Positions 11,278-63,023 of a stretch of 64,000 bases of DNA are shown piece after piece (the stretch's first letter is position 1; each line of letters begins with the position of its first letter). The stretch is from sequence record PP400784. One strand, written 5' to 3'. The notes under the pieces are model-generated. The model saw only the letters and a program-made list of their open reading frames with translations. It was not told where the DNA came from and did no database searches. The position numbers and the translations under genes were made by a program. The stretch is from Escherichia phage FL38.

Positions 11278-11311
11278 AATATATTCCTCAATGTTTTGTC
11301 TTGATGGGAGT

Positions 11312-11340
11312 ATCTTACTACTCCCTTAATCCGGTGTCAA
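11312..11340 (-). promoter_or_regulatory. early sigma70-type promoter (TTGACA-N17-TAAGAT) with inverted repeat GGGAGTA/TACTCCC over the -10
   Basis: Read on the minus strand; drives 10519..11277. Confidence 0.6.
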
Positions 11341-11346
11341 CTATTT

Positions 11347-11502
11347 TTAAATTTCTTCTACAGTAAAGTCTTCAATGTTATTGTGCTCGGAGAACGTTGC
11401 CAGACCAGCATTCCATGCATCATCCTCAGAGAAGAATACACCGTAACGTTCATATCCTTTAGCGCCTTCAAATTTAACCATTAATTTGTGAGTATGTTTC
11501 AT
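11347..11502 (-). CDS. hypothetical protein, 51 aa
   Basis: ATG at 11502 preceded by AAGGAGAATCAAA; track ORF extends further upstream from a non-ATG codon. Confidence 0.4.
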   Translation of the reverse strand: MKHTHKLMVKFEGAKGYERYGVFFSEDDAWNAGLATFSEHNNIEDFTVEEI

Positions 11503-11533
11503 TTTGATTCTCCTTCGTTGTCTTGATGAGTTC

Positions 11534-11562
11534 ATTGTAGGGGATCGGCGATCCCCTGTCAA
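11534..11562 (-). promoter_or_regulatory. early promoter TTGACA-[GGGGATCGCCGATCCCC]-TACAAT; the 17-nt spacer is a palindrome with two GATC sites
   Basis: Palindrome at 11540-11556; drives 11347..11502. Confidence 0.6.
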
Positions 11563-11572
11563 CAACTATTTT

Positions 11573-11785
11573 TTAATTTTTACCCGCTCGTGCATTAATA
11601 CGCATTTTCTGAATAGCCATGATCTGGCTTACTGCTTCTTCTTTACGTTCTTGCGTGATAACGTGACCAGATTCCGCAAACTCTCCCGCAACTTCTTCTA
11701 CGATCTCGCGAACTTGAGAACGTCCAAAGATGCGGTTTCCTTCGTAGCTCATAAACTCGGTTACTACTTGCTCGATAGATTTCAT
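11573..11785 (-). CDS. hypothetical protein, 70 aa
   Basis: ATG at 11785 with AAGGAGAATCAC upstream. Confidence 0.4.
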   Translation of the reverse strand: MKSIEQVVTEFMSYEGNRIFGRSQVREIVEEVAGEFAESGHVITQERKEEAVSQIMAIQKMRINARAGKN

Positions 11786-11815
11786 GTGATTCTCCTTTCG
11801 TTTCGGTGTGGGAGT

Positions 11816-11844
11816 ATGTTAATACTCCCATTTCTTTACGTCAA
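11816..11844 (-). promoter_or_regulatory. early promoter TTGACG-N17-TAACAT with inverted repeat GGGAGTAT/ATACTCCC
   Basis: Drives 11573..11785. Confidence 0.55.
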
Positions 11845-11851
11845 CCAGTTT

Positions 11852-12094
11852 TTAGAAATTTTTCGCTTCTTCTTCGGTCATCATCACCGCGCATTCGTGC
11901 ATAACTTTGAAAACCGGATCAATCATATCGAATGCTTCGCGGGACAGTTTACGAGAAGCGATTTTGATTGCTTCTACGTCTTCTACTACAGGAACAAAAA
12001 CAGTTTTCAGTTCATCGAGAACGGCAGCTTCTTTTTCATTCAGGAAGATACCAGCGTCATACAGTGCAACTTCGATAACATTAACTTTAACCAT
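11852..12094 (-). CDS. hypothetical protein, 80 aa
   Basis: ATG at 12094 with GGAGGAATTAAA upstream. Confidence 0.4.
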   Translation of the reverse strand: MVKVNVIEVALYDAGIFLNEKEAAVLDELKTVFVPVVEDVEAIKIASRKLSREAFDMIDPVFKVMHECAVMMTEEEAKNF

Positions 12095-12127
12095 TTTAAT
12101 TCCTCCAGTTCGTTTAGGTATGGGAGT

Positions 12128-12156
12128 ATAATACTACCGATGACCTTTGGCGTCAA
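12128..12156 (-). promoter_or_regulatory. early promoter TTGACG-N17-TATTAT
   Basis: Drives 11852..12094. Confidence 0.5.
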
Positions 12157-12358
12157 CTGCTTTTTTATTATTTTCGTGAAAATTTTTCGTCGCCTCATGT
12201 GCTTTTCGCTGGGCTTCTTGTTGTGCTTGCTGGCGTGCTGCCTCTTGTGAAGCCATAACGGAAGCATTTGCAGCAGTTACAGCCGCTACCATCGCTGCGG
12301 TATTAGCATTTACAGTACATGCACTAGCCAGCAAAGCAATTGCAATCATTTTCTTCAT
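12134..12358 (-). CDS. small secreted protein or lipoprotein, 74 aa
   Basis: ATG at 12358; N-terminal signal peptide MKKMIAIALLASACTVNA, then a Q/A-rich helical region. Confidence 0.45.
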   Translation of the reverse strand: MKKMIAIALLASACTVNANTAAMVAAVTAANASVMASQEAARQQAQQEAQRKAHEATKNFHENNKKAVDAKGHR

Positions 12359-12525
12359 AGTTTCCCCTTTAGGTTATCTTCGACCTTCACCCATTCCGCG
12401 TATTCTTGCGCGGCTACTTTCGGATTTAGTCCGTCTTCGTACATTGCTTCAAGTAATGCTTCGTCGGTGGGCTTATACCCTAGATAAGCCTCCACCTGAT
12501 TTTTCCAAATTTTATACCAGTTCAT
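12355..12525 (-). CDS. hypothetical protein, about 56 aa
   Basis: Start moved to the in-frame ATG at 12525 (GGTGA upstream), just after the upstream gene's stop. Confidence 0.3.
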   Translation of the reverse strand: MNWYKIWKNQVEAYLGYKPTDEALLEAMYEDGLNPKVAAQEYAEWVKVEDNLKGKL

Positions 12526-12529: not shown

Positions 12530-12802
12530 TCACCAGTCAAGAGCGCGTGTCTCTGCGTCTTCCCATGCTTGATCCATAACAGCCTTGAAAACATATTCTA
12601 AAGTATCATCTTTAGAGAATCCGAAGACCTTAGACGGAATATCTTCAATTGCTACTCCCGCGACTTCTGCATTACGCGCTTGGCAATAATGCAACTCTAA
12701 GTTATCGAGATAGCGACCGCCTAATTTCTCCATATCATCCCAGCATTTCCAGTAACCTACTTTATTTGCAATCGCTAACACCTTGCTGTTTTCGTTGTTC
12801 AT
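12530..12802 (-). CDS. hypothetical protein, 90 aa
   Basis: ATG at 12802 preceded by AAGGAGAATCAAAG; own promoter. Confidence 0.4.
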   Translation of the reverse strand: MNNENSKVLAIANKVGYWKCWDDMEKLGGRYLDNLELHYCQARNAEVAGVAIEDIPSKVFGFSKDDTLEYVFKAVMDQAWEDAETRALDW

Positions 12803-12833
12803 CTTTGATTCTCCTTTTGTTTGGTATGTGTGT

Positions 12834-12862
12834 ATTATGCAATGATGGATTTGTGAAGTCAA
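12834..12862 (-). promoter_or_regulatory. early promoter TTGACT-N17-CATAAT
   Basis: Drives 12530..12802. Confidence 0.5.
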
Positions 12863-12870
12863 CAACTTTT

Positions 12871-12902
12871 TAAAATAAAAAAGCCGACCACACGGATCGG
12901 CT
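12871..12902 (-). terminator. rho-independent terminator
   Basis: AGCCGA-(9 nt)-TCGGCT followed on the minus strand by a U-run; same stem sequence as the terminators after gene 35 and after nrdD. Confidence 0.75.
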
Positions 12903-12912
12903 TAATAATCAG

Positions 12913-15225: not shown

Positions 15226-15519
15226 TTAACCGCCTTTAACCATTGATACAGGAATTGTTTTCTGATTTGTGTATAAGTGGCCTACTTCAATTTTTTCTTG
15301 AATCACCACGACGTTACAATATCCACTGTCTTTAAGTTTTCTGATAATGACTCGCTTTTGTTCGTCGGTGATAGGATTGACTGTTCTCACCAATTCACCG
15401 CAAATAATAGCACCATCTTTACAATTACCAGTAACTTTCATGCTACGACCGTGAACAACAACCACGTCACCGTAAATCACATTTTCGTCGTCGTATTTGG
15501 TAATAACCGTGACCGTCAT
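15226..15519 (-). CDS. hypothetical protein, 97 aa
   Basis: Track ORF. Confidence 0.4.
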   Translation of the reverse strand: MTVTVITKYDDENVIYGDVVVVHGRSMKVTGNCKDGAIICGELVRTVNPITDEQKRVIIRKLKDSGYCNVVVIQEKIEVGHLYTNQKTIPVSMVKGG

Positions 15520-15564
15520 AATGTATTCCCTCTAAGAAAGGCCGCGCAAAGCGGCCTATGTTGA

Positions 15565-15891
15565 TTATTGTTCTACAGTATAACCGTTGTTTTCAAGCCA
15601 TGCAATAACAATCTTTTCGCCAATTTCATCGAGCATTTCATCAGCGCCATATTCTTTAATGAAAGTCGATGGATCATTATTGCTTACTACGTGCTGGATC
15701 ACAACATGTTCAGGAATTGCGTCTAGTAGTTCGCTATGATCATACTCATTAACGATATCTTCAACACTAACATTATTAACCAAATCAACATCATCCATAG
15801 TCACAGTAACGCGACCGGACGGACGCAATGAATATTGGCTACTTTCAACTTCAACATGTGCACTTTCGCAAGTAACTTTCATATCAACCAT
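15565..15891 (-). CDS. highly acidic protein, 108 aa
   Basis: ATG at 15891; about 23 D/E against 5 K/R. Confidence 0.4.
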   Translation of the reverse strand: MVDMKVTCESAHVEVESSQYSLRPSGRVTVTMDDVDLVNNVSVEDIVNEYDHSELLDAIPEHVVIQHVVSNNDPSTFIKEYGADEMLDEIGEKIVIAWLENNGYTVEQ

Positions 15892-19495: not shown

Positions 19496-19690
19496 TTATA
19501 CATTTTCAATTACCCATTGCAGATGGGCTTCTGCGTCAACCAGTTCAGCGCGGCTTTTCTCTAAGCACTTGCTGTATTCTTTACGTTCCCACTCGGCAAT
19601 TTCGTTTTTCAGGACTTCTTCATAGTAAGCAATTACGCCTTTCAGGTCTGAAACTTTACGGCTTGCCAATTCGATGTAATGGTTACGCAT
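19496..19690 (-). CDS. hypothetical protein, 64 aa
   Basis: ATG at 19690 with GGAGAATCAAA upstream. Confidence 0.35.
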   Translation of the reverse strand: MRNHYIELASRKVSDLKGVIAYYEEVLKNEIAEWERKEYSKCLEKSRAELVDAEAHLQWVIENV

Positions 19691-19877
19691 TTTGATTCTC
19701 CTTTGTTACTAGATAACGAATTTGGTCTTGCATTGCGATCAGTTCCCAGCGTGCTACTTTCATCATGGAAACTGACTCTTTGAACATAATATTAGCTTTT
19801 TCCTTCTCCCCTGTCAAGTAGATTTCTGCAATTTTTTCACAAAATTTTTGAGTTTCTTCATTCTTAAACGGTTTCAT
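19683..19877 (-). CDS. hypothetical protein, about 64 aa
   Basis: Start moved to ATG 19877 (track start is TTG); own promoter. Confidence 0.35.
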   Translation of the reverse strand: MKPFKNEETQKFCEKIAEIYLTGEKEKANIMFKESVSMMKVARWELIAMQDQIRYLVTKENQNA

Positions 19878-19907
19878 ATAAGTCAACCTTTTGTTTTCGA
19901 TGGGGAC

Positions 19908-19936
19908 ATTATGATATATCCCCGATCCAGTGTCAA
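19908..19936 (-). promoter_or_regulatory. early promoter TTGACA-N17-CATAAT with GGGGA..TCCCC inverted repeat over the -10
   Basis: Drives 19683..19877. Confidence 0.55.
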
Positions 19937-19943
19937 CAGATTT

Positions 19944-20243
19944 TTAATCTTTTTTCAATGCATCCATTACTCGCTCTGCGATCAGTTCTCGTAAGCACTG
20001 ATAACCATGATATTTGATGGCAATGTCACGCAGATCATTAACCAGTTCCCGTACTTCATGGTCTTTCAGATCGTCTCTGTATTTCGATTTAACCGTGTCT
20101 TTAGGTGGATTGTGGATAACCTGAAAACCTTGTTCTGCAATCACTGCGGCTTCTCGCTGGCGTTCATGTTGTACTGTATTTTTGATCAGGTCTACTTCCA
20201 TGAACTTTGTCATGCTCATCATCATGTTATTCTTTTTGCTCAT
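19944..20243 (-). CDS. hypothetical protein, about 99 aa
   Basis: Start set to ATG 20243 (GAGGA upstream), downstream of the promoter; the track ORF runs further upstream through the promoter. Confidence 0.35.
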   Translation of the reverse strand: MSKKNNMMMSMTKFMEVDLIKNTVQHERQREAAVIAEQGFQVIHNPPKDTVKSKYRDDLKDHEVRELVNDLRDIAIKYHGYQCLRELIAERVMDALKKD

Positions 20244-20277
20244 TATTAAATCCTCATAAACGAAAAGGGAGACTCCC

Positions 20278-20305
20278 ATTATAGAGAATCTCCCTTGTAT
20301 GTCAA
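20278..20305 (-). promoter_or_regulatory. early promoter TTGACA-N16-TATAAT followed by palindrome GGGAGTCTCCC
   Basis: Immediately downstream of the gp39 stop; drives 19944..20243. Confidence 0.55.
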
Positions 20306-20308
20306 GTG

Positions 20309-22132
20309 TTATGATTGCATCCAAATTTTGCGGCGGTCTGAATCTTCGCTATAGAGCAAATCGAATAGCTCTTTATAGTTTTCCGGTAACGTGATGATTT
20401 CCATTACAGGATCGTTGATCACGCGATGATAATCTGATTCTGTAAGAGATGCTAACCCTTTGATATATCGAATGCTATAACCTTTGATATTATCTCGGTC
20501 GTTCTCGAAATCTTCTAGGTCATAATACCATCGAACATCATCACCTTTCTTTGGTTCCGCAATGATAATAGGTGTTTTGATAAACCGGATTCGTCCATCT
20601 TCGAACAATTCAGGCCAACGTGCAAAGAAAGAGATCAGACTAGGTTTAATAGACCCGATCCCGTCAGTATCAGCGTCTGTCATAATCGCAATATTTTTGT
20701 ATTGCATAACTTCCAATGCATCAACACCAAATTGCAAACCAGTGATCGCCATGATGTTAAAAATTTCGGCGTTCTTAACGATCTTTGCCTCCGGTTGTTC
20801 CCACGTTGTAAGAGTTTTGCCTCGCAACGGGAAACCTCCATGTAAATCTGGATCACGTACAGAGACCAGATAGTTGATCGCGGAATCACCTTCCGTCAAA
20901 AACAGGGTAGTTTCTGCGTCAGTTCCAATAAGGTTAGCTTTAACGTGTTTTGCTACCTTAGCCCGTTTCGCTGCTTTGGCTGCCTTAGTCGCTGCCGCTT
21001 TATCTGCTGCCTCTTTGCGTGCCAGGACTACAGCAATAATAGGCATGATAATGTTTTCTTTCTTCGCAATGACTTTAGCCAGCTTTTTAAAATCAAGATC
21101 AATATGACGCTTGATATCACCAGTTGGATTAGTCAATCGTTCTTTTGTCTGTGAATCAAAACGAAGGTTAGGCAATTCACGAACAATAAGAATACAGGTC
21201 AATCCAGACTTAACCGCAGCTTTAGTAACATCAACCTTATGTTCTTTCTTGATTCGTTTTACAATCTCTTCACAAAGATCATCTGTCACGTAGTCTACGT
21301 GTGTTCCCCCGTTTTTGGTAAACAGACCATTAGCAAAGGATACTGATTTAAAACCTTCTCCCTCGACCGCAGGAACTAGGGCAAGTGAAAAGTTTTTATC
21401 TTCAATGACAAACGGATCATCATTGTATAGTTTAGCATAATCCTTGAACTTACTAACAATACGTTTACCATTAAACTTAAACGTGATCTTAGGAAAGATT
21501 ACGCTCAATGATTGCAGACGATCATGAACAATATCTAAAACAGAGTTGTCCATCATATAACCTTCGAAGTGGTCGAAGTCTGGACAAAATGTAACCTTCG
21601 TTCCCTTCAATTTTGATGGTTTTGATGACCATGTGATATTTTCAGCCCCGTTTGTGCATTGAACGGTCATTTCTGTTTCACCATCACAGGTCACACCAGT
21701 AAACCAATCGCTAAAGAAATTTGACAACGACGACCCCACACCGTTCATCCCTTGCGTTAATCGATTGGTATCATCAAAGTTAGACCCTGCTTTTGTTCGT
21801 GTCCATGCGGCTACAGGTTGCGGAATCTGCGTACCCTCTGGGGTAGTAACCATATGTTGAGGAATACCGCGACCATTGTCTGTTACCGTAACAATATTGT
21901 TTTGGATATCGACGCTAATCACATTGGCAAATTCAAAGTTAGTGCGGATCGCCTCGTCTACAGAGTTGTCGATGATCTCATCAATGATTTTAACCAGTCC
22001 AGGAACATATGAAATTTTTGTCCACTTACCGAACAGGAAACGTTGATGTTCTTCGTAAGTTGTTGATCCTATATACATTCCTGCACGCTTAAGGACATGT
22101 TCACGATCAGATAAAATGCGAAACTCACTCAT
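20309..22132 (-). CDS. 39: DNA topoisomerase II large subunit, GyrB-like ATPase; genes 39 and 60 as one uninterrupted ORF (607 aa)
   Basis: Long colinear match to remembered T4 gp39 (KRAGMYIGS, VPGLVK.IDEIIDNSVDE, DNGRGIP, GGNF, GMNGVGSSL, DSQTKERLT, LFLTEGDSA); extends through the region that is gene 60 in T4. Confidence 0.95.
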   Translation of the reverse strand: MSEFRILSDREHVLKRAGMYIGSTTYEEHQRFLFGKWTKISYVPGLVKIIDEIIDNSVDEAIRTNFEFANVISVDIQNNIVTVTDNGRGIPQHMVTTPEGTQIPQPVAAWTRTKAGSNFDDTNRLTQGMNGVGSSLSNFFSDWFTGVTCDGETEMTVQCTNGAENITWSSKPSKLKGTKVTFCPDFDHFEGYMMDNSVLDIVHDRLQSLSVIFPKITFKFNGKRIVSKFKDYAKLYNDDPFVIEDKNFSLALVPAVEGEGFKSVSFANGLFTKNGGTHVDYVTDDLCEEIVKRIKKEHKVDVTKAAVKSGLTCILIVRELPNLRFDSQTKERLTNPTGDIKRHIDLDFKKLAKVIAKKENIIMPIIAVVLARKEAADKAAATKAAKAAKRAKVAKHVKANLIGTDAETTLFLTEGDSAINYLVSVRDPDLHGGFPLRGKTLTTWEQPEAKIVKNAEIFNIMAITGLQFGVDALEVMQYKNIAIMTDADTDGIGSIKPSLISFFARWPELFEDGRIRFIKTPIIIAEPKKGDDVRWYYDLEDFENDRDNIKGYSIRYIKGLASLTESDYHRVINDPVMEIITLPENYKELFDLLYSEDSDRRKIWMQS

Positions 22133-23076: not shown

Positions 23077-23319
23077 TTAAATATCCTCCGCGATGTGCCG
23101 GAACAACTCCAGATCGTTTTTATCCAGAATGAAACCGCTACAATCAATAATCCCGTTACCGTAATTATCGGTTAACAGTCGTTCCGTTGCCATGTATGCG
23201 CGTACTTTGTTGTTAAAATTCATTACATGTTGTGCATAGTCACAATGAATCTTTTGACGGTTCCACGCGACAATTGATTGTAGATGTATTACATTAGCCA
23301 CATTATTAATAACAACCAT
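23077..23319 (-). CDS. hypothetical protein, 80 aa
   Basis: Start moved to ATG 23319; the upstream part of the track ORF belongs to the neighbouring small gene in another frame. Confidence 0.35.
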   Translation of the reverse strand: MVVINNVANVIHLQSIVAWNRQKIHCDYAQHVMNFNNKVRAYMATERLLTDNYGNGIIDCSGFILDKNDLELFRHIAEDI

Positions 23320-23320
23320 A

Positions 23321-23497: not shown

Positions 23498-23498
23498 A

Positions 23499-48821: not shown

Positions 48822-48825
48822 AATA

Positions 48826-50009: not shown

Positions 50010-50051
50010 ATTTGATTCTCCTGTAAAGTTGTATCTCGTCTTGATGAATAT

Positions 50052-50080: not shown

Positions 50081-50084
50081 GCAT

Positions 50085-51169: not shown

Positions 51170-51198
51170 GTTGTCCTCTCGTTGTTTTCGATGTGAGC

Positions 51199-51226
51199 AT
51201 TATACATTAGCTAATCATGTTGTCAA
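51199..51226 (-). promoter_or_regulatory. early promoter TTGACA-N16-TATAAT
   Basis: Drives 50630..51169. Confidence 0.6.
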
Positions 51227-51232
51227 CACCCC

Positions 51233-51264
51233 AAAACGAAAAAGCCGACCCTTTCGGATCGGCT
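51233..51264 (-). terminator. rho-independent terminator after nrdD
   Basis: AGCCGA-(10 nt)-TCGGCT followed by a U-run. Confidence 0.75.
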
Positions 51265-53176: not shown

Positions 53177-53671
53177 TTATTTTACCAGTTCTGCTAATTC
53201 TTTTTCTTTAGCTTCTAGTTCAGCTTTAAGCTGTTTAATCTCTTGTCGCTTCTTATTAGCGGCTTCTTGCTTACTATTTCGGATAACCTGATCTAGATAC
53301 AACTCCCAATCCTGAATATTTTTGATAATGTAACCGTCAACATTAATTGGTCGGAGATTCAGTACAGCTTCCAGTTTAGTCGCAAAAACTTTAATTGCTG
53401 GTGTGAAGTATTCATATTCGTTATCTTCAAACCAATAACCTAGACTTGCATTATCAATACGAAGACGAAGTTCAAGATCAAGGTCTTTATCTTCGGTGTA
53501 AAGATCTTTCACCTGACCCAGCGAACTAACAACAACTTTAAAACGAATTTTATCTACACCACCAAACACATCAGTAAGGATACCAGCAATTGAGCTATTA
53601 GCGCAAGATTGGTCGCTGAATGCGTCAAGGTTTTCTTTAGTTACAGTATACCAAACATCTTGTACCCACAT
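53177..53671 (-). CDS. paralog family member (coiled-coil C-terminus), 164 aa
   Basis: ATG 53671 after GAGAGGATTATATT; C-terminal QEIKQLKAELEAKEKELAEL. Confidence 0.45.
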   Translation of the reverse strand: MWVQDVWYTVTKENLDAFSDQSCANSSIAGILTDVFGGVDKIRFKVVVSSLGQVKDLYTEDKDLDLELRLRIDNASLGYWFEDNEYEYFTPAIKVFATKLEAVLNLRPINVDGYIIKNIQDWELYLDQVIRNSKQEAANKKRQEIKQLKAELEAKEKELAELVK

Positions 53672-53701
53672 AATATAATCCTCTCGTTGTTAAGTGGGAG
53701 T

Positions 53702-53729
53702 ATTATAGCATACTCCCTTCGCATGTCAA
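53702..53729 (-). promoter_or_regulatory. early promoter TTGACA-N16-TATAAT with inverted repeat GGGAGTA/TACTCCC around the -10
   Basis: The -35 overlaps the stop of the upstream gene; drives 53177..53671. Confidence 0.6.
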
Positions 53730-54904
53730 GCACTAACTTTTTTCTTTACTGCTTTCACCTTCTGGCGAATTGCTCGAATCTCTTCGATCTCTTTTTCAGT
53801 CTCTTTAACAATTTCTTTGCGATTCTGAATATCTGTATCTAGATTATCATCAAGTTTAGGCAGCATGTCAATCAAGAACTTTTTAAAGTCTTTCAGGTTT
53901 CGGATAACAGCACCTTCACCCATTACCGCCACGCCTACACCATCCGGCAGATCACCAAACAGCTTAACCAGTTCAGACAGATGATCATGATCTTCTAGTG
54001 CTTCTTCCGGTTCAGATGGCAGTTCAACAAAGTTATAACGTTCATCATTGCTGATCAGGTGATACCAGCAAAGCCCAAAAGATTTAGGAGTATATTCTAC
54101 ACCACCAACTTCAACTGCGTCAACACTTCCGAAAGAATCTACTTTAGTTACCTTAAATCCATGTTCCAGCGTTTTAATAATTTCAATAACATGACTGGAT
54201 ACGGTTTCAGTATTAAACCAATGAGGCAAATTATGTGGATTTGGCTTGTATCGTTCGCCTACTTTAAATCTCTGACCACGCTCTTGCATACGGACATATT
54301 CAACTCGCGTGATTTCCGCGAAGTATTCAAATTCGCTACCGTCAAACAAGCAATTCCATTGATCACAAAAACGGTCCGCCTTGACGGTTTCACCTTTCGC
54401 GGTGATCATGGTAGCTGATCCGTGCAATTCTTCTTCAACTAAAAAGCCATATTCGACAAAATCAACAAGTTTCATGGCTTCTTTGTGCTCTGGGTCATGC
54501 TCTCCCCAGAATCGCTTAAATTCTTGCAAACCTTCTGGGGTAAACGAATAACATTTACCTTTTTCAAAGTAAGTCGGCATTGCATCCTCTTTCTTGTTCA
54601 TCGCTTCGTATGCCTCTTTTGAGATACGTTTAAAGTATTTGCGCTCATTGTGCATAATCATAGTAGACCAATAATAAACGATATCCTCAGCGGAATAAAC
54701 TACATCTCCAGCTTCAATAGTAATAACATGACCGTGGTCATCTTTTTCTAATACTTTAAAGCCCTTTTCTACGATTTCAGCAACCCGAATATGACCACGG
54801 CGCGAAGCATCGGTCAGAATAATTGAATAGCGAGAAAAGTCTAGAAACTCATCTTTACCGCCTTCACGGAATGCATAGTAATGACCTTCAAAGAATTTAG
54901 CCAT
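53726..54904 (-). CDS. paralog family member with repeated N-terminal domains, 392 aa
   Basis: Several internal repeats of the beta-domain motif (ERKYFKRI, HGFKV..V) and a coiled-coil tail. Confidence 0.5.
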   Translation of the reverse strand: MAKFFEGHYYAFREGGKDEFLDFSRYSIILTDASRRGHIRVAEIVEKGFKVLEKDDHGHVITIEAGDVVYSAEDIVYYWSTMIMHNERKYFKRISKEAYEAMNKKEDAMPTYFEKGKCYSFTPEGLQEFKRFWGEHDPEHKEAMKLVDFVEYGFLVEEELHGSATMITAKGETVKADRFCDQWNCLFDGSEFEYFAEITRVEYVRMQERGQRFKVGERYKPNPHNLPHWFNTETVSSHVIEIIKTLEHGFKVTKVDSFGSVDAVEVGGVEYTPKSFGLCWYHLISNDERYNFVELPSEPEEALEDHDHLSELVKLFGDLPDGVGVAVMGEGAVIRNLKDFKKFLIDMLPKLDDNLDTDIQNRKEIVKETEKEIEEIRAIRQKVKAVKKKVSA

Positions 54905-54935
54905 AATATAATCCTCTCGTTGTTTAGATGGGAGT

Positions 54936-54964
54936 ATCTTACTACTCCCGTTTCATCATGTCAA
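54936..54964 (-). promoter_or_regulatory. early promoter TTGACA-N17-TAAGAT with inverted repeat GGGAGTA/TACTCCC
   Basis: Nearly identical cassette to those at 11306-11340 and 55840-55874. Confidence 0.6.
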
Positions 54965-55527
54965 GCGTTAAATGACTTTTGGATCTCTTTCAGTTCAGCT
55001 ACTTTATCTGCGCTGAATTTAGCGTAGGTATCATGTCGAATAATTTCACTTTCAAGAAAGGTTTCCAGTCGAGATCTATTTTCAATAAGGAACTCTTTCA
55101 GGTCTTCCGCGTTCTTGACAAAGATTTTATTGTCGGTAATGTCATCTTCAATCGCAAAGGAGATAGAGCGAACTTTACCAAACAAGTTAATCAGATCTTC
55201 CAGAGATTCTTCTTTCTTAACTGGTTTCATTTCTTCAAACTGCTTTTTAGTGATGCGTTTAAAGTATTTGCGCTCGCTTGCATCAATCATGATTGACGCA
55301 CCCTCATAATCATGAGTTTCTACCAAATACACTTTACCCATAACATTAACCGTAAGAACTTTAAAGCCCCTGTGAAGCACACCATACAGGAACTTGTTAT
55401 GTTGTGGGTAGCGTTTAACAAATTCCTCTGCGGACTCAGCATTACGGAAAGTGTAATAACGACCTCGTTCAAAAACAGCATCATTTGAAGACTTAGCCGG
55501 ATACAATTTATACGTTTTCTGTACCAT
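54961..55527 (-). CDS. paralog family member, about 188 aa
   Basis: Start set to ATG 55527 (GAGGATTATATT upstream); motifs RGFKVL, ERKYFKRI. Confidence 0.45.
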   Translation of the reverse strand: MVQKTYKLYPAKSSNDAVFERGRYYTFRNAESAEEFVKRYPQHNKFLYGVLHRGFKVLTVNVMGKVYLVETHDYEGASIMIDASERKYFKRITKKQFEEMKPVKKEESLEDLINLFGKVRSISFAIEDDITDNKIFVKNAEDLKEFLIENRSRLETFLESEIIRHDTYAKFSADKVAELKEIQKSFNA

Positions 55528-55541: not shown

Positions 55542-55814
55542 TCATTTCACTAATTGAACAGCACGGAACAGAATGCGCTCACACGGAAGCAGCATAAATT
55601 CCCAACGCGGATCAAAGTCTTTAGCGGTGTATGTTTTCCCATCAACCGAGATTTCACTTACATAACCAACAGGTGACACTTTAAGAACAGTAAACCCATT
55701 CTTGATGACTTCGTAGGTATATTTCACCCCTTCGTATTCATCATCTAAGAAGTCTTTATGTGCTTGCTCAGATTTAAAAACATAGGCAACACCGGATTTA
55801 AACATCTTACGCAT
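55542..55814 (-). CDS. paralog family member (N-terminal domain only), 90 aa
   Basis: Start set to ATG 55814 after AAGGAGAATCAACA; NGFTVLKV...DGKTYTAKDF. Confidence 0.45.
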   Translation of the reverse strand: MRKMFKSGVAYVFKSEQAHKDFLDDEYEGVKYTYEVIKNGFTVLKVSPVGYVSEISVDGKTYTAKDFDPRWEFMLLPCERILFRAVQLVK

Positions 55815-55845
55815 TGTTGATTCTCCTTCTTGATTAGATGGGAGT

Positions 55846-55874
55846 ATTTTACTACTCCCATTTCTTATTGTCAA
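55846..55874 (-). promoter_or_regulatory. early promoter TTGACA-N17-TAAAAT with inverted repeat GGGAGTA/TACTCCC
   Basis: Immediately downstream of the gp49 stop. Confidence 0.6.
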
Positions 55875-55877
55875 CTA

Positions 55878-56351
55878 CTATCTTAATCTTTGTATGAATT
55901 GTTTCTTATACTTCTTCGTGATTTCTTCTCGTGTATCAGCGTCGCAGTAATCGAAACCTTCTGCGTCCATAATATCAACCATCTCCGCGCGTGTCAAGCG
56001 TGAAAATCGTTTTACTTTATCAACAGCATATTGAGGATGTAAATGATTGTTGGTGTAGTCTCCTTTGATGTAATTAACATAGTTTGTAGCCCAAACAACG
56101 AAATCAGCACCTAAAGCACCAACACCAAACCGTTTAAAGTCTCCGGTCAACGATCCTTCTAGGCGGTTGCAACACGAATGAAGCAATCCCCTTACGCGGC
56201 CTTGCCCTTTCCCATCTAGATCGTGGTCGTGGTCAAGATGGTTTTTGCTCATATCCTCAAAAAGTGGCAATTGACAAAGGGGGCAAATGCCCCCCTGTTT
56301 TTCGAATAGTTCTTGTTTGTACTCTTTAGCACTCTTAGCAGTCAGTAACAT
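55878..56351 (-). CDS. 49: endonuclease VII (gp49), Holliday-junction resolvase
   Basis: Match to remembered T4 endo VII (C.LCQ, NHLDHDH.L.G...G.VRGLL, Y...N..HP, TR.EM); start set to ATG 56351 after GGAGGGTGA. Confidence 0.85.
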   Translation of the reverse strand: MLLTAKSAKEYKQELFEKQGGICPLCQLPLFEDMSKNHLDHDHDLDGKGQGRVRGLLHSCCNRLEGSLTGDFKRFGVGALGADFVVWATNYVNYIKGDYTNNHLHPQYAVDKVKRFSRLTRAEMVDIMDAEGFDYCDADTREEITKKYKKQFIQRLR

Positions 56352-58727: not shown

Positions 58728-59036
58728 TTATTTCACGTTAACGCCGTTATCAATCCAGCCGACGCTATTTGGTTTAACAGTTTTACCATAGGATGCATAC
58801 TTAATCAAGCATGGTTTAACATCATTATCAAATCTTCCTAAACGTACTCCCAAATCAGGAATATCCATGTATGCGGCTTTATATCCCCATGTACCGTATT
58901 CAGAATCAATCTCAACCGGACGGCCTTTAAAAGCATACACTACACCGTGACGGTCAACGATAACATAGCGATAGCCAGCCGGAAGATACACAGTTTCGCC
59001 GTAAACTTTAACTGGAGTAGCAGAAGAGATAAACAT
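58728..59036 (-). CDS. hypothetical protein, 102 aa
   Basis: ATG 59036 after GAGGATTATATT; own promoter. Confidence 0.4.
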   Translation of the reverse strand: MFISSATPVKVYGETVYLPAGYRYVIVDRHGVVYAFKGRPVEIDSEYGTWGYKAAYMDIPDLGVRLGRFDNDVKPCLIKYASYGKTVKPNSVGWIDNGVNVK

Positions 59037-59070
59037 AATATAATCCTCACATCGTTCATTTGATGCGGTT

Positions 59071-59099
59071 ATTATATGATAACCGCATTTTCATGTCAA
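59071..59099 (-). promoter_or_regulatory. early promoter TTGACA-N17-TATAAT with inverted repeat GCGGTTAT/ATAACCGC around the -10
   Basis: Drives 58728..59036. Confidence 0.6.
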
Positions 59100-59105
59100 C
59101 AGTTT

Positions 59106-59480
59106 TTAAAAATCTTCTTCCGGTTTATATCGACCGTCGTCTTCTTGTTTTGGAGTAAATCCTTTATGCGTGCGCGGCTTCGCTTCCGGTTTACCCGCGA
59201 TCGATAGTCCAAGCCATTTAAGAAGTTTGTATGAGTAAGCGATGATCACAACTACCCACGTTAAAGGCCATACAATAGAACAAATGGCATATGCTCCAGT
59301 ATCGACCGCTTTGGTGTCCTTGTCGAATCTGGCGTATAAGCAAATTATAAGATAGGTGATCATTGCACCAGTAGGCCAGATATAAAGCACATTAACAATA
59401 TCTTGTGTTGTCAAATTGTCCTCCTTACATGTCTTGCAGTGCATAAAAGCATTTTTCTTCGTAGTCATAGAAAATGTCAA
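59106..59480 (-). CDS. small membrane protein, up to 124 aa
   Basis: Long hydrophobic segments; true start probably internal because the 5' part overlaps the upstream gene. Confidence 0.35.
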   Translation of the reverse strand: MTFSMTTKKNAFMHCKTCKEDNLTTQDIVNVLYIWPTGAMITYLIICLYARFDKDTKAVDTGAYAICSIVWPLTWVVVIIAYSYKLLKWLGLSIAGKPEAKPRTHKGFTPKQEDDGRYKPEEDF

Positions 59481-59703
59481 AGTATGCTTTTTCTACATAC
59501 TCGCCATTGATCCAAGCGGCAGTAACAATCAGAGTGGTCCAGGTAGATCCGCTCTCAACGGTAAAGGTTTTAATACCCAGCTTCGCTGCCAAGTCGAACG
59601 CAAACCGGACGCAACCACGACAGGAAGTGATGTTGGAAGTTTTGATTTTAAAGCCACCGCGAGTTTTAGAAATTTCTACTTTAGCGAAAGACAGGTTGCT
59701 CAT
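59425..59703 (-). CDS. hypothetical protein, 92 aa
   Basis: Start set to ATG 59703 after AAGGAGAATCAAA; the track ORF begins at GTG inside the promoter. Confidence 0.4.
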   Translation of the reverse strand: MSNLSFAKVEISKTRGGFKIKTSNITSCRGCVRFAFDLAAKLGIKTFTVESGSTWTTLIVTAAWINGEYVEKAYFDIFYDYEEKCFYALQDM

Positions 59704-59745
59704 TTTGATTCTCCTTAAGAAAGTGTGTTTCGTTTTGATGTGTGT

Positions 59746-59774
59746 AGTATAGGGGATCACCGATCCCCTGTCAA
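59746..59774 (-). promoter_or_regulatory. early promoter TTGACA-[GGGGATC-ACC-GATCCCC]-TATACT, palindromic spacer with two GATC sites
   Basis: Palindrome at 59752-59768; near-identical to the cassette at 11534-11562. Confidence 0.6.
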
Positions 59775-59790
59775 CAACTTTTTTATGATT

Positions 59791-60045
59791 TTAGTGAATT
59801 AACTCTACACCAAAATGAGGCACAGAGAACGCCTTACAAAACACATATTCATCATGTTTAGGAATCGCCCCTAACCGCTCTATTTCGCTCGCTAACACTA
59901 TAAACTGTTTATCTGGTGCATATGCCTTGCGTGCTTCAACAACGCACGGAAAACGCGTTTTAGAGAGTTCTGGATAGTTTTCCGAATCCAGCAGGACAAT
60001 GAATACCCTGTTACATTGATTGTAGAATCCTGTTTTTGATTTCAT
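59791..60045 (-). CDS. hypothetical protein, about 84 aa
   Basis: Start moved to ATG 60045 (GAGAGGAAA upstream). Confidence 0.35.
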   Translation of the reverse strand: MKSKTGFYNQCNRVFIVLLDSENYPELSKTRFPCVVEARKAYAPDKQFIVLASEIERLGAIPKHDEYVFCKAFSVPHFGVELIH

Positions 60046-60349
60046 CAAGTTTTCCTCTCAGTACAATTCGTGAAATCTTCCCTTCATGATTTCGTTGGTT
60101 CTTGTCTTCACAGTTTACCCATTCAACAAGGTCTTTACCTAACTCGAAAGCCCATTCTCGGTCCTGCTTTACGTTTTGTAGGTATGGACTTTCTGACACT
60201 CTACGAAGTGATGTTGTCGTAACAAGAATGATCCCAGGAATGGTCGGATGTTCCTTGCCATATACAATAGGACGCGAGTCACTATCAATACCTTGTAAGA
60301 AGGTGTATCCTGAATCACTTAGAATCATATACTTTTTCATTTCACACAT
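60011..60349 (-). CDS. hypothetical protein, about 112 aa
   Basis: Start moved to ATG 60349 (GAGGAAA upstream), overlapping the upstream stop. Confidence 0.35.
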   Translation of the reverse strand: MCEMKKYMILSDSGYTFLQGIDSDSRPIVYGKEHPTIPGIILVTTTSLRRVSESPYLQNVKQDREWAFELGKDLVEWVNCEDKNQRNHEGKISRIVLRGKLDEIKNRILQSM

Positions 60350-60606
60350 CACAGTTTCCTCAACCAGTTATTCAAGCGAGTAAACCATGATGCTTTTCGT
60401 GCTTCTTTTACTTTATGTGCACGTAAACCACTGAAACACCATTCATAATCATCACTGAAACATGATTCAACAGGAACACCCGCATTTCGTAGTTCTCTGG
60501 TCTTTATCATGAATCCTTGACATAAGGGGCGACCTTCAACAATGATAGGAAGTTTAACTTTTTCCATGAAAGTATACCCAGCACGGTCAATAATTTCAAT
60601 TTTCAT
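60349..60606 (-). CDS. hypothetical protein, 85 aa
   Basis: Track ORF. Confidence 0.35.
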   Translation of the reverse strand: MKIEIIDRAGYTFMEKVKLPIIVEGRPLCQGFMIKTRELRNAGVPVESCFSDDYEWCFSGLRAHKVKEARKASWFTRLNNWLRKL

Positions 60607-60850
60607 TTACATTATCTCCATAGATCTTTCCAGCAATATCAATTTCACCAGCGCGAACATCTAGGATAAGATGCGGTAGGTGTATGCAGTTTTCCCACCC
60701 CACTCGCTTCATTTCTTCTACGGTAATATAAGCCCACCCGTTCGCTGTAATAAAGTCTACTTCAACCTTGAGAGGAAAGCAAGACTTTTCTATGTCTTCG
60801 AATCCGATAATGTGTTTTGTCGTTGAATATGGAATATATCCGGTGATCAT
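60596..60850 (-). CDS. hypothetical protein, 84 aa
   Basis: Track ORF. Confidence 0.35.
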   Translation of the reverse strand: MITGYIPYSTTKHIIGFEDIEKSCFPLKVEVDFITANGWAYITVEEMKRVGWENCIHLPHLILDVRAGEIDIAGKIYGDNVNEN

Positions 60851-61308
60851 TTTGTGATCTCCTTATACTCAACACACCATAAGCGGGTAGCCCATGATAA
60901 ACGCTCATAACGCTGGCAGAAATCGGACCATAGATATTGTGCACCGTTCGGCATAGTTGAAATATGCGTTTTCTCTCCAACTTTCACGAAAGAAGTATTC
61001 GATTTTGTGATCTCGACCGGAGTATATCCGAAAGCGGGTTCCAAGCCAACATCTGAACTAAATGCCAATTTAACAGAATTTGTTTTTCTGACCGCTGTCC
61101 GGTTTCCTTCTGGGTATAGCACAGCAGGTTTAGCGCCTAAGCGGATAAACTCAGTGTTTTTAATAAACAGAATATCATGATAACCGTCATATTCCGACAC
61201 TTCCATAGTAACAGGAAAATCGACATGTGCTAAACCTGGTAGATCTCGCATATCATGAAAGGTCGCCATCAACTTTTTCATTCTATATTCCTCACTCTTC
61301 TGTTTCAT
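60847..61308 (-). CDS. hypothetical protein, 153 aa
   Basis: Track ORF. Confidence 0.35.
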   Translation of the reverse strand: MKQKSEEYRMKKLMATFHDMRDLPGLAHVDFPVTMEVSEYDGYHDILFIKNTEFIRLGAKPAVLYPEGNRTAVRKTNSVKLAFSSDVGLEPAFGYTPVEITKSNTSFVKVGEKTHISTMPNGAQYLWSDFCQRYERLSWATRLWCVEYKEITK

Positions 61309-61528
61309 TTCTTTTATATGGTACTATAACCGGATTAATACAGCAAGCACCAATTACGTTATGAGCACCACAATTTAAGCATTTATAATCATGGAACTTA
61401 TTAAGGAATCGCCCGAACTCATAACCGACTAGCGCCGCATGTACTTGAGTCTCGATCTCATCCATATCAGCCAATGTTTTAACCTTCATAATATAATCCT
61501 CAAATTGTAGTTTTGCGAAGATGGTCAT
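61292..61528 (-). CDS. hypothetical Cys-containing protein, up to 78 aa
   Basis: CLNCGAHNVIGACC; start may be an internal ATG. Confidence 0.3.
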   Translation of the reverse strand: MTIFAKLQFEDYIMKVKTLADMDEIETQVHAALVGYEFGRFLNKFHDYKCLNCGAHNVIGACCINPVIVPYKRNETEE

Positions 61529-61790
61529 TACATGCTTTTAATGCATCGGTCGCGGTGTCATAGCGAGTATTATCATAGCACCAATAACCATCTGTCAACT
61601 GATAAATTAATCCATCCTTTTTAGCTTCGATGAAAGATAACTCTTTGAAAGTTTCTACTTTCTTTGCTGATAATCCACGGTCACGGCGCTTATAGAGTTT
61701 AGCCAAAATGCGTTCAGCTTGTTCCTCTTTATCACCAGACAGATCCCAGATGATGTTTCGGATATGCTTGATTAATTGTTCAGTGGTCAT
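61500..61790 (-). CDS. hypothetical protein, 96 aa
   Basis: ATG 61790 after AAGGAGAATCAAAG; own promoter. Confidence 0.4.
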   Translation of the reverse strand: MTTEQLIKHIRNIIWDLSGDKEEQAERILAKLYKRRDRGLSAKKVETFKELSFIEAKKDGLIYQLTDGYWCYDNTRYDTATDALKACNDHLRKTTI

Positions 61791-61819
61791 CTTTGATTCT
61801 CCTTAGTTGGTATGCGTGC

Positions 61820-61847
61820 ATTATAGCATTGTGATTATCTTTGTCAA
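61820..61847 (-). promoter_or_regulatory. early promoter TTGACA-N16-TATAAT
   Basis: Drives 61500..61790. Confidence 0.6.
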
Positions 61848-61852
61848 CACCC

Positions 61853-61884
61853 AAAAACAAAAAAGGCTACCCCGAAGGATAGCC
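61853..61884 (-). terminator. strong rho-independent terminator after the gp38-like gene
   Basis: 8-bp stem GGCUAUCC/GGGUAGCC with UUCG tetraloop followed by UUUUUUGUUUUU. Confidence 0.85.
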
Positions 61885-61891
61885 CATAAAA

Positions 61892-62677
61892 TTACACGCG
61901 AGCACCGTAGATCGTGCCTACTTTATCCCAGCGAGGGGCATTACCAGTAACAGCTTTACCCGCAGCACCACCCGAGTGAACAGTTCCACCAGTACCACCT
62001 TTAATATATGAAGATTTGCCAGCAGCTCCCAAATCTCCACCATCTCCTCCATAATGAACCCCAGAAACAGTGCCTTTACCTGGGGCAGAAATTGTACCAG
62101 CAGATGCTGCCGCTGCGCCGCCTCCTGCCGCACCCGCAGCACCAAATGGACGGCCTCCACCGCCGCCAAATTTCATATCCATTTGAGGGAAAGGATTGTA
62201 TCTAGCACCAGCACCGCCACCACCGCCACCACCAATAATACCATTATTGTTTATTCTTAAACGAGTTCCAATTCCGTTATTTATTGCATTTCCTCCTGCT
62301 CCACCAGCAGAGTTACTTCCGCCATTTCCTCCACGACCTAATACATGAACACCAGAGTTAATAATGAGTGTTACATATTCGTTTGTCAGTGAGTTAGGGA
62401 AATCAAGACAAGGAACGCCAGTAGATTGGGAAACAATATTACCCGTGATAGTAATTACTACCGGAGTAGATCCTTGTGCTTTCATCCAGTTAATAAGAGT
62501 GTCTTTATTGTAAGAGTTACTAGCACCAATGCTATAATGAATCTCTTTAGAGCGTCCGACCATTGCCGACATATACGCCGGACGACCTAAGCGAACAGCT
62601 TGCATTGCGGCGCTCATCCACCGTTGACCAGTCTCGGACACAGCAGATGATCCTACCCATCCAGAAGATATTGCCAT
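61892..62677 (-). CDS. gp38-type glycine-rich adhesin-like protein (T2/S16-type receptor-recognising protein architecture), 261 aa
   Basis: ATG 62677 with GAGG upstream; N-terminus MAISSGWVGSSAVSETGQRWMS closely matches the remembered gp38 adhesin N-terminal domain (GWIGSSAVNETGQRWMS); C-terminal half is a series of poly-Gly motifs (GRGGNGGSNS, GGGGGGGAGA, GGGGGRPFG, GGDGGDLGAAG) between short variable segments. Confidence 0.65.
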   Translation of the reverse strand: MAISSGWVGSSAVSETGQRWMSAAMQAVRLGRPAYMSAMVGRSKEIHYSIGASNSYNKDTLINWMKAQGSTPVVITITGNIVSQSTGVPCLDFPNSLTNEYVTLIINSGVHVLGRGGNGGSNSAGGAGGNAINNGIGTRLRINNNGIIGGGGGGGAGARYNPFPQMDMKFGGGGGRPFGAAGAAGGGAAAASAGTISAPGKGTVSGVHYGGDGGDLGAAGKSSYIKGGTGGTVHSGGAAGKAVTGNAPRWDKVGTIYGARV

Positions 62678-62690
62678 AAAATTTCCTCAC

Positions 62691-62713
62691 AAGAAAAGCC
62701 CCAATTAAGGGGC
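62691..62713 (-). terminator. terminator-like hairpin upstream of the gp38-like gene
   Basis: GCCCC-uuaauu-GGGGC followed by UUUUCUU, 14 nt before the RBS. Confidence 0.6.
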
Positions 62714-62731
62714 ATTGATTGATAATATTAC

Positions 62732-62953
62732 TTAGATGACCTCTGCTTCACCATTCAGGAAGAAAGACCATGTTTTGTTAGGATAGCGAAGCGCCCATGA
62801 TTCAGCGGTTTTAACACCAGCTTCGAACAATTGACGGCTGGTTACTTTAGCCATACCATCTTCGATGGCAACGTTTTCAATAATCATCGGGTACTTAGCG
62901 CCACGCATGAAACCGAAGCCAGCGGAAGATTTGATAATTTTAACCGTTGCCAT
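62732..62953 (-). CDS. hypothetical protein, 73 aa
   Basis: ATG 62953 after AGGAGAATCAAAA; own promoter. Confidence 0.4.
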   Translation of the reverse strand: MATVKIIKSSAGFGFMRGAKYPMIIENVAIEDGMAKVTSRQLFEAGVKTAESWALRYPNKTWSFFLNGEAEVI

Positions 62954-62994
62954 TTTTGATTCTCCTAGAAAGTGTATCTCGTTTCGATGTGTGT

Positions 62995-63023
62995 ATTATG
63001 CAATAACACAGGATCGCTGTCAA
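62995..63023 (-). promoter_or_regulatory. early promoter TTGACA-N17-CATAAT
   Basis: Drives 62732..62953 and, by read-through, the gp38-like gene. Confidence 0.55.

Follow-up and report, generated by a model that had tools for sequence, protein, structure and literature searches.

PeSL-type early promoter cassettes in the minus-strand early region of Escherichia phage FL38

A recurring early cassette

The stretch analyzed here, referred to below as the window, comprises 64,000 nucleotides of Escherichia phage FL38 (record PP400784). Two long pieces of it matched RB49, Phi1, JSE, GEC-3S, and about 55 other Krischvirus genomes at 97-98% identity over their full length (megablast), and we assign the window to Krischvirus, as part of an RB49-like T4-type coliphage. 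Its first 8 kb hold plus-strand late tail-fibre genes and no cassettes. From ~8.3 kb to 64 kb runs the early region, a minus-strand block (as delimited by the RB49 annotation) in which rIIB, rIIA, topoisomerase, dda, modB, g41, uvsX, g43, g45, g46, and g47 are followed by g55, nrdD, g49, and dam, ending with g38, with many small hypothetical open reading frames (ORFs) interspersed. Within this block recurs a module of ~80 bp, visible as direct repeats of 60-100 bp with long identical stretches, that combines a promoter, usually a stem-loop, and a ribosome site with its start codon. These cassettes are very probably the promoter-early stem-loops (PeSLs) of RB49-type T4-like phages, recombining compound control cassettes, as the initial annotation of the window had proposed.

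Over the whole window, 31 sequences on the minus strand and none on the plus strand matched TTGACA-N16-18-TATAAT at 11 or more of the 12 positions, compared with a mean of 1.47 per strand and a largest value of 5 in 100 dinucleotide shuffles; perfect 12/12 matches numbered 9 against 0.04 expected. A loose scan (9/12) gave no enrichment between 8 and 28 kb (59 found, 57 expected) and only a mild one between 44 and 64 kb (81 found, 54 expected), so that the excess is confined to consensus-grade sites. About 20 of the 31 near-consensus promoters belong to complete cassettes in intergenic gaps. A profile built from 20 cassette seeds gave 21 hits (E<0.01), every one of them on the minus strand, and with 20 core cassettes and a promoter excess on that strand only, the earlier count of about 20 minus-strand copies holds. 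Cassette pieces also formed the largest families in an unbiased direct-repeat search (D1-D7, D9, D11, D12, D14, D15, and D19). With gene calls that are heuristic, here as in the ribosome-site counts below, 23 of the 38 computed gaps of at least 50 nt contain a cassette, several of the other large gaps being start-calling artefacts. The genes downstream are mostly annotated as "hypothetical protein" in RB49, Phi1, and GEC-3S (exceptions are g43, modB, srd, and frd.2), in line with the claim that most cassettes precede small ORFs of unknown function.

Some 13 of the 31 near-consensus promoters are intragenic (rIIA, rIIB, g41, g46, nrdG, nrdH, frd.2, g49, and others), with minus-strand -35 elements at 17363, 19321, 16474, 10320, 30649, 38646, 39546, 39664, 46900, 49482, 53871, 55997, and 61598. 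These sites come without a cassette leader or ribosome site and would initiate sense-strand transcripts within genes. The RB49 record labels a few intragenic sites "hypothetical early promoter."

Read in order, a cassette (named below by the position of its -35) consists of the stop codon of the upstream gene, an A/T-rich region, the -35, a spacer, the -10, a CAT, the leader, the ribosome site, and ATG. A+T accounts for 74% of the 20 nt preceding the -35 (A alone for 43%), compared with 59% for the window and 59.5 +/- 10.5% for random 20-mers. The TTGACA-like -35, 16-17 nt spacer, and TATAAT-like -10 of the initial annotation are present in the 20 core cassettes: the -35 is TTGACA, TTGACG, or TTGACT with G favoured immediately 5' of the hexamer, the spacer is 16-17 nt, and the -10 is of the form TAnnnT. 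Six mostly C/A bases follow, and then CAT, at 6-8 nt past the -10. Since RB49 early promoters favour C at -3 to -1 (Nolan et al., PMC1524935), the A of CAT, 7 nt past the -10, is the likely transcription start in FL38, by analogy with the start mapped only in RB49.

The leader is 10-24 nt long, 46% A and 10% G, often ends in ACGA, and falls into clear sub-families. At the 3' end of each of the 20 core cassettes stand a Shine-Dalgarno sequence and ATG, 54-71 nt from the start of the -35. In alignment the copies thus share more than the sigma-70 hexamers, namely the A+T-rich 20 nt upstream, the position of CAT, and the A-rich, G-poor leaders. A conserved leader had been claimed, and this stands as far as the A-rich, G-poor motif is concerned. 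It does not stand as a single fixed 16-mer: CATCGAAAACAACGAG occurs exactly once and with up to three mismatches four times (0.88 expected; four were reached in 1 of 100 shuffles). This 16-mer is not significantly repeated, so a fixed ungapped consensus was rejected and the leader is better described as a loose gapped motif with sub-families.

The two Shine-Dalgarno forms that had been distinguished were both recovered, all copies on the minus strand. Form 1 is (A)AGGAGAATCA(A)(A)-ATG, and its core AGGAGAATCA occurs 10 times (0.12 expected); nine copies stand directly behind a cassette promoter, and the tenth (19693-19702) is joined to promoter 19936 in the JSE genome. Form 2 is GAGGA(T/A)TATATT-ATG, with GAGGATTATATTATG present 8 times exactly and 14 times with up to two mismatches (0.29 expected), behind promoters and also before promoter-less internal genes.

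These parts combine freely. The GGGAGTA hairpin is paired with a form-1 site at 55874 and 11844 and with a form-2 site at 54964, 53729, and 11340. The GGGGATC spacer hairpin comes with a long leader at 59774 and 50080 and with a short one at 11562, and the long leader of the 59774/50080 type also stands behind the hairpin-less promoter 63023, this 45-nt leader being shared by the three cassettes. Such free mixing of hairpin, leader, and ribosome-site modules is the mosaic that repeated exchange within cassettes would produce.

Stem-loops near the promoters

Perfect-stem hairpins of -8 kcal/mol or lower were found within 45 nt of the promoter in 20 of 26 cassettes (77%), compared with 13% of 500 random positions, and the fold z-scores of six folded examples ranged from -1.8 to -4.2. 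About five cassettes are hairpin-less. By position the hairpins fall into four classes, those 5' of the -35, those within the spacer, those over the -10, and those immediately 3' of it, in agreement with the five published PeSL subclasses (PMC2839356). Every hairpin that had been listed as lying over a -10 was found again: GGGAGTA-N6-TACTCCC is exact at 11306, 11810, 54930, and 55840 (0.07 expected), and a hairpin scan and RNA folding brought up both the GGGAGTA variant at 53696-53717, with an 8-nt loop, and the GCGGTTAT...ATAACCGC pair at 59065-59086. A T-run directly follows the three hairpins upstream of a -35 (61864-61885, 51243-51264, and 12881-12903), most hairpins downstream of a -10, and the hairpin of cassette 20305; the GEC-3S annotation carries overlapping "terminator" and "promoter" features at orthologous sites, including the counterpart of cassette 20305. 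No Rfam family reached the gathering threshold anywhere in the window.

The hairpins over the -10 had also been suggested to be operators, to which a phage or host protein would bind as duplex and so repress a subset of early promoters. In keeping with this, two palindromes recur nearly unchanged, GGGAGTA/TACTCCC in five intact copies and one relic and GGGGATC/GATCCCC in three copies. Their position is just the one at which a bound protein would obstruct RNA polymerase, and a GGGG...CCCC stem has been speculated to be the target of a DNA-binding protein (PMC2839356). Among the cassettes, however, at least six unrelated stems are found at the same position: GGGAGTA, GCGGTTAT, GGGGATAT, GGGAGATTCTC, GGGGATC, and CGGGGA differ from one another yet stay complementary to their partner arms, so that pairing is kept and sequence is not. 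The loops vary from 3 to 8 nt and in sequence, several cassettes have no hairpin, and no candidate repressor was identified. In the orthologous hairpins of five relatives, changes fall mostly in the loops, and two A-to-G substitutions leave a G-U pair that can form on the sense strand alone, a feature irrelevant to binding of a duplex. Stems that vary while pairing is kept, together with these sense-strand G-U pairs, speak for folding of a single strand rather than for a protein site in duplex DNA. The operator proposal is therefore unsupported for the hairpins at large; it is possible only for the two recurring stems, GGGAGTA and GGGGATC, and we regard it as very improbable.

Two of the GGGAGTA hairpins (11808-11831 and 55836-55863) carry a T-rich tail when read on the plus strand and were scored as terminator-like in that direction; they might stop antisense transcription entering from downstream. 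As for the GGGGATC/GATCCCC hairpins, each contains two GATC sites and the phage encodes Dam. A role of Dam was considered and dropped, as GATC is not enriched either in promoter cores (8 found, 4.4 expected) or in the window (362 found, 354 expected). At the three places concerned (11543-11553, 50061-50072, and 59755-59765, in cassettes 11562, 50080, and 59774) the GATC link may be incidental.

Probable gene exchange at the cassettes

PeSLs were named by Arbiol, Comeau, Kutateladze, Adamia, and Krisch in 2010, who counted 52 in phi1 and 51 in RB49 and found strong promoter activity as well as terminator activity in lacZ reporters (PMC2839356). They also sequenced recombination products, the PeSL "mini-circles," joined either in the stretch from the -10 to the Shine-Dalgarno or within the A/T-rich region, and reported PeSLs on both sides of g43, for which 35814 and 33085 are the FL38 counterparts (PMC2839356). 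The sigma-70 promoter, A/T-rich region, stem-loop, Shine-Dalgarno plus ATG, intergenic ORFan setting, and indel breakpoints of these elements were all found in FL38. We regard the FL38 cassettes as orthologous to the published PeSLs, and the initial annotation as the correct rediscovery of an element known since 2010. FL38 shares with RB49 and phi1 the genus, 97% nucleotide identity, and the same architecture with a variable stem-loop position, as well as the preference for ORFans in hyperplastic regions, the placement around g43, and the association with indels. Nothing essential differs, FL38 having its own pattern of presence and absence of genes, such as the unit 11866-12367 described below.

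Rearrangements were examined against RB49, Phi1, JSE, GEC-3S, JK32, and two IMG/VR contigs. The contigs (L050 and L061) were the Krischvirus-like ones among those used from a scan of IMG/VR with GGGAGTA-N6-TACTCCC and served as extra relatives; as a probe this 14-base palindrome was rejected as too unspecific, with at least 120 stretches matched. The initial annotation had pictured the cassettes as a means of shuffling small early genes and had called for a search of related genomes for cassettes before different genes. The comparisons with RB49, Phi1, JSE, and GEC-3S indeed place indel ends inside cassettes. GEC-3S is without 11354-11563, the unit of a 51-aa gene, and the one cassette left there joins the upstream flank of 11562 to the body of 11340 as an exact hybrid, the crossover falling within AAAAATTAAAAA-TAGTTGACA. 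In Phi1 an extra 272-bp gene stands at 11576-11583, within the A/T-rich region of cassette 11562. A two-gene unit at 11866-12367, which holds cassette 12156 and adjoins cassette 11844, is missing from RB49 (AY343333), Phi1, and JSE and present in 31 of the 58 Krischvirus records found. JSE is without the ORF004c gene (19702-19895), the junction lying within the leader so that the isolated ribosome site at 19688-19702 is joined to promoter 19936, and it has 588 bp inserted precisely at the -35 of cassette 20305. In one IMG/VR contig the gp38 adhesin region is replaced, with a breakpoint in cassette 61847.

The likeness among the copies could also have arisen if each copy had been selected on its own for strong promotion and efficient ribosome binding; the cassettes would then be ordinary early promoters that play no part in recombination. 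Selection for high expression would be expected to produce the hexamers, an A-rich upstream region, C-rich positions -3 to -1, and unstructured A-rich leaders alike. In addition, the leader 16-mer CATCGAAAACAACGAG is not significantly repeated, and form-2 GAGGATTATATT also stands before the promoter-less genes at 10194, 19210, 55525, and 61487. Convergence does not account well, however, for sub-families that share long stretches without evident functional need, such as the 45-nt leader of 63023, 59774, and 50080 or the arbitrary stems, nor for indel junctions inside cassettes, one of them the exact two-cassette hybrid of GEC-3S, and products of PeSL-PeSL recombination have been sequenced experimentally (PMC2839356). 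We consider this explanation most unlikely.

Five of the seven whole-gene ORFan indels terminate on at least one side in a gap that holds a cassette, compared with ~25% expected (p=0.013), although the sample is small (n=7) and comes from closely related genomes whose events are not all independent; the published counterpart is 10 of 14 (PMC2839356). Beside the size of this sample, other points weigh against seeing the cassettes as active units of expression, insulation, and exchange. The activity of each FL38 copy is a prediction from sequence, and the published activity and mini-circle data cover a few RB49/phi1 PeSLs that lie outside the window (PMC2839356). A T-run is absent after the spacer-class and most over-the--10 hairpins, so that by sequence rules these are not canonical intrinsic terminators, and the terminator role of hairpins of this kind goes back to one reporter test on a different PeSL (PMC2839356). 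Finally, about half of the structural differences from relatives are unrelated to cassettes and are due to homing endonucleases or to recombination between tandem paralogues.

Homing-endonuclease genes or intervening sequences occur in relatives (JK32, JSE, RB49, and GEC-3S) at positions corresponding to 22079, 34551, 43655, 52262, and 56671, in or beside the topoisomerase gene, g43, g47, nrdD, and dam; the FL38 window has none. Tandem-paralogue recombination is seen at 23373/23494 and 60434/60606 and is a second, cassette-independent route of gene gain and loss. The tandem small paralogues in question lie at 23316-23373 and 23494-23551 (58-bp flanking repeats, 88% identity) and at 60349-60850, and at each of the two places the gene copy number differs by one among relatives. 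At 47499-49362 on the minus strand, three or four adjacent genes of ~160-270 aa open with the same ~31-nt sequence across the start codon (family D8) and resemble a family of tandem paralogues (RB49 ORF049-051 region). In the variable two-gene unit, the first gene (12134-12358, minus strand) is promoter-less with a weak ribosome site of its own and encodes a 74-aa product whose beginning, MKKMIAIALLASACTVNANT, looks like a signal peptide, possibly that of a lipoprotein; one relative has the annotation "putative membrane protein" under the match.

The stem-loops could instead act on DNA, as extruded hairpins or cruciforms cut by gp46/47 or endonuclease VII into recombination hot spots, with termination secondary. 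The window does encode gp46/47 and gp49, the general lack of a T-run after spacer and over-the--10 hairpins would agree with such a role, and a targeted recombination pathway has been raised as a possibility (PMC2839356). Against this, stems of only 7-10 bp are short for extrusion, the observed crossovers lie in the A/T-rich -35 region or the leader and not at the hairpin, hairpin-less cassettes also take part in rearrangements, and the sense-strand G-U pairs point to a single-strand fold of that strand. We therefore judge a DNA-level role unlikely. The exchange is presumably general homologous rather than site-specific.

Taken as PeSLs, the cassettes would work as follows. The near-consensus sigma-70 promoter would be read by the unmodified host RNA polymerase straight after infection. 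Upstream of the -35 lies the A/T-rich, UP-like stretch, which is at times preceded by a terminator of hairpin and T-run. The unstructured A-rich leader and one of the two ribosome sites would then serve a mostly small gene of unknown function. The spacer or over-the--10 hairpin lies upstream of the predicted start of its own promoter and so would be made as RNA only by read-through from the upstream unit, where it may insulate neighbouring early units from one another by terminating or attenuating transcription or by stabilising the 3' end; for the hairpins without T-run, termination or attenuation is presumed. Homologous recombination of the phage would cross over between cassettes, and the genes between them would be deleted, inserted, or swapped together with their own signals. 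The anatomy of the cassettes, their non-random occurrence, the strand bias, the enrichment of hairpins, and the indel junctions within cassettes are observed in FL38 itself.

Similar arrangements are known elsewhere. PeSL-like composite promoter-terminator motifs have been described in T4/PST and KVP40/nt-1 (Comeau, Arbiol, and Krisch 2014, PMC4122927) and repeated elements at the internal-protein loci of T-even phages (cited in PMC2839356). In all of these, early-promoter/stem-loop repeats flank variable genes and serve as exchange points, but the T4/PST and KVP40/nt-1 motifs are analogues and not homologues according to their authors, with T4-type early promoters and weaker, A/T-richer stems. 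A blastn search with one 86-nt cassette found 338 places, all in 58 Krischvirus records, and the sequence family is therefore genus-specific. Lambdoid morons and integron cassettes are likewise single accessory genes that carry their own expression signals (a comparison made in PMC2839356); morons, however, are without a conserved flanking repeat that mediates movement, and integrons use attC sites and a dedicated integrase, whereas the FL38 cassettes have no associated recombinase. Few concrete mechanisms have been put forward for the gain, loss, and exchange of small accessory genes in large lytic phages with their neighbours left intact, and PeSLs are among them. FL38 adds one genome to the published picture, with clean junctions such as the GEC-3S hybrid, and leaves it unchanged.

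Ribosome sites and individual cassettes

The form-1 ribosome site, GGAGAAUCAAA, may link the cassettes to the shut-off of early mRNAs by RegB. In T4-type phages the RegB/S1 endoribonuclease cuts early mRNAs at an 11-nt single-stranded GGAGRAYARAA (Durand et al. 2006), usually in the Shine-Dalgarno region (PMC1702504). GGAGAAUCAAA matches this consensus at 10 of 11 positions, the only mismatch being position 8; 10/11 is reached at seven sites and 9/11 at three, while form 2 (GGAUUAUAUUA) is a poor match. GGAG-type sites with at least 9/11 matches tend to go with cassette promoters (odds ratio 9.7, p=0.0004), which could simply be due to the common descent of the cassettes. As in T4, the candidate sites lie in the Shine-Dalgarno region of early transcripts, but position 8 is C in GGAGAAUCAAA where A is strongly preferred in T4. 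The match could also simply reflect an A-rich spacer behind a GGAG Shine-Dalgarno.

The regB gene of RB49 is divergent yet active, with GGAU as its own Shine-Dalgarno (PMC3014915). A Krischvirus homologue is present in GEC-3S (NC_025425, 51917-52339; locus L127, 395-817), 42% identical to T4 RegB, and maps ~4 kb past window position 64000. Its ribosome site, GGAUAAUAAAA / AAAGGAUAAUAAAAUG, is the T4 RegB/S1 consensus with U at position 4; the gene is flanked by PeSL-type promoters. We raise, tentatively and as the less probable outcome, that GGAGAAUCAAA, the invariant 3' module of about half of the cassettes, is a putative RegB/S1 cleavage site besides being a ribosome site, the two forms splitting the early genes into two sets. 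If so, form-1 mRNAs, which almost always begin with the first gene behind the promoter, would be quickly shut off by RegB and those with GGAUUAUAUUA would resist it, and a gene moving with its cassette would inherit a promoter, an insulator, and a programmed mRNA lifetime. The PeSL paper (PMC2839356) does not distinguish the two ribosome-site forms, which are separated here, and does not mention RegB; while PeSLs themselves are known, the RegB match of GGAGAAUCAAA is possibly a new detail.

The individual cassettes, all on the minus strand, are described here in order of descending position. At 62951-63043, TTGACA 63023, a 17-nt spacer, CATAAT, and a long leader lead to AGGAGAATCAAAA-ATG of a 73-aa ORF, without a strong hairpin. 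The cassette at 61788-61885 has its hairpin and T-run terminator (61864-61885) upstream of TTGACA 61847, followed by TATAAT, the leader ATACCAACTA, and AGGAGAATCAAAG-ATG (96 aa). A spacer hairpin, GGGGATCggtGATCCCC, lies between TTGACA 59774 and TATACT in the cassette at 59701-59794, which continues with a long leader and AGGAGAATCAAA-ATG (92 aa). At 59034-59119, behind TTGACA 59099, TATAAT sits in the loop of the GCGGTTAT/ATAACCGC hairpin before GAGGATTATATT-ATG (102 aa). Three cassettes with the GGGAGTA hairpin over the -10 follow: 55812-55894 (TTGACA 55874, GGGAGTA/TACTCCC over TAAAAT, AGGAGAATCAACA-ATG, 90 aa), 54902-54984 (TTGACA 54964, GGGAGTA/TACTCCC over TAAGAT, GAGGATTATATT-ATG, a 392-aa frd.2/goF homologue), and 53669-53749 (TTGACA 53729, GGGAGTAT-gctata-ATACTCCC over TATAAT, GAGGATTATATT-ATG, 164 aa).

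Cassette 51226 (51167-51264) again has a hairpin and T-run (51243-51264) upstream of its TTGACA, with TATAAT, the leader CATCGAAAACAACGAG, and GAGGACAAC-ATG (179 aa). Spacer hairpins are found at 50007-50100 (TTGACG 50080, GGGGATCgcgaGATCCCC, TATACT, long leader, AGGAGAATCAAAT-ATG, 50 aa) and at 42576-42652 (TTGACG 42632, CGGGGAgaaaTCCCCG, TATACT, GGAGGTTGTT-ATG, 83 aa). The cassette before gene 43, the DNA polymerase gene (35751-35834), has TTGACA 35814, TATAAT, and a ribosome site that is a hybrid of the two forms, AGGAGTTTATATT-ATG; the variant downstream of gene 43 (33011-33105; TTGACA 33085, TATAAT) has a hairpin of -21 kcal/mol that starts from the last base of the -10. Before modB (26700-26784), TTGACA 26764 and TATTAT are followed by a hairpin and T-run in the leader and GGAGGC...ATG, and before srd (26135-26215), TTGACA 26195 and AATAAT are followed by the leader ATACCAACTA and AGGAGAATCAATT-ATG, with no hairpin.

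In the cassette at 20241-20325 (TTGACA 20305), TATAAT lies in the loop of a 13-bp hairpin, and a T-run and GAGGATTTAATA-ATG (99 aa) follow. That at 19875-19956 has TTGACA 19936, a GGGGATAT/ATGTCCCC hairpin over CATAAT, and the leader CATCGAAAACAAA before ATG 19877 of the ORF004c homologue; the isolated ribosome site AGGAGAATCAAA-ATG at 19688-19702 has no promoter directly upstream. The remaining copies are those at 12800-12903 (terminator hairpin and T-run 12881-12903, TTGACT 12862, CATAAT, AGGAGAATCAAAG-ATG, 90 aa), 12092-12176 (TTGACG 12156, TATTAT, a hairpin relic consisting of the 3' arm TACTCCC only, GGAGGAATTAAA-ATG, 80 aa), 11783-11864 (TTGACG 11844, GGGAGTAT/ATACTCCC hairpin over TAACAT, AGGAGAATCAC-ATG, 70 aa), 11500-11582 (TTGACA 11562, spacer hairpin GGGGATCgccGATCCCC, TACAAT, AGGAGAATCAAA-ATG, 51 aa), and 11275-11360 (TTGACA 11340, GGGAGTA/TACTCCC hairpin over TAAGAT, GAGGAATATATT-ATG, 252 aa).

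Three further variants carry a hairpin with a T-run. Before gene 44 (37750-37861), TTGACT 37841 and TATAAT are accompanied by a terminator-like hairpin, GTGGGGAGTAT..ATACTCCCCGT. Weak promoter matches mark the variant before gene 40 (31685-31794; match at 31774, terminator hairpin AAAGGGGC..GCCCCTTT, GAGGATTATATT-ATG) and the one at 15517-15616 (match at 15596, hairpin AGGCCGC..GCGGCCT, GAGGGAATACATT-ATG, 97 aa).

Two other leaders of the minus strand show further structure. In the gene 43 leader (35753-35790), a weak hairpin TCTTTC-gtaagt-GAAGGA overlaps the Shine-Dalgarno; gp43 is reported to regulate its own synthesis at a translational operator in the gene 43 leader of T4, RB69, and RB49 (PMC3014915). 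The gap before gene 47 (43658-43749) has a strong hairpin and T-run terminator, then TGATATAGT, an extended -10 without a recognisable -35, and then CATCGAAAACGAAGAGAGGAAGAGACT-ATG, and looks like a cassette leader behind a -35-independent promoter. In RB49 and JK32, an HNH endonuclease gene is inserted exactly at this gap.

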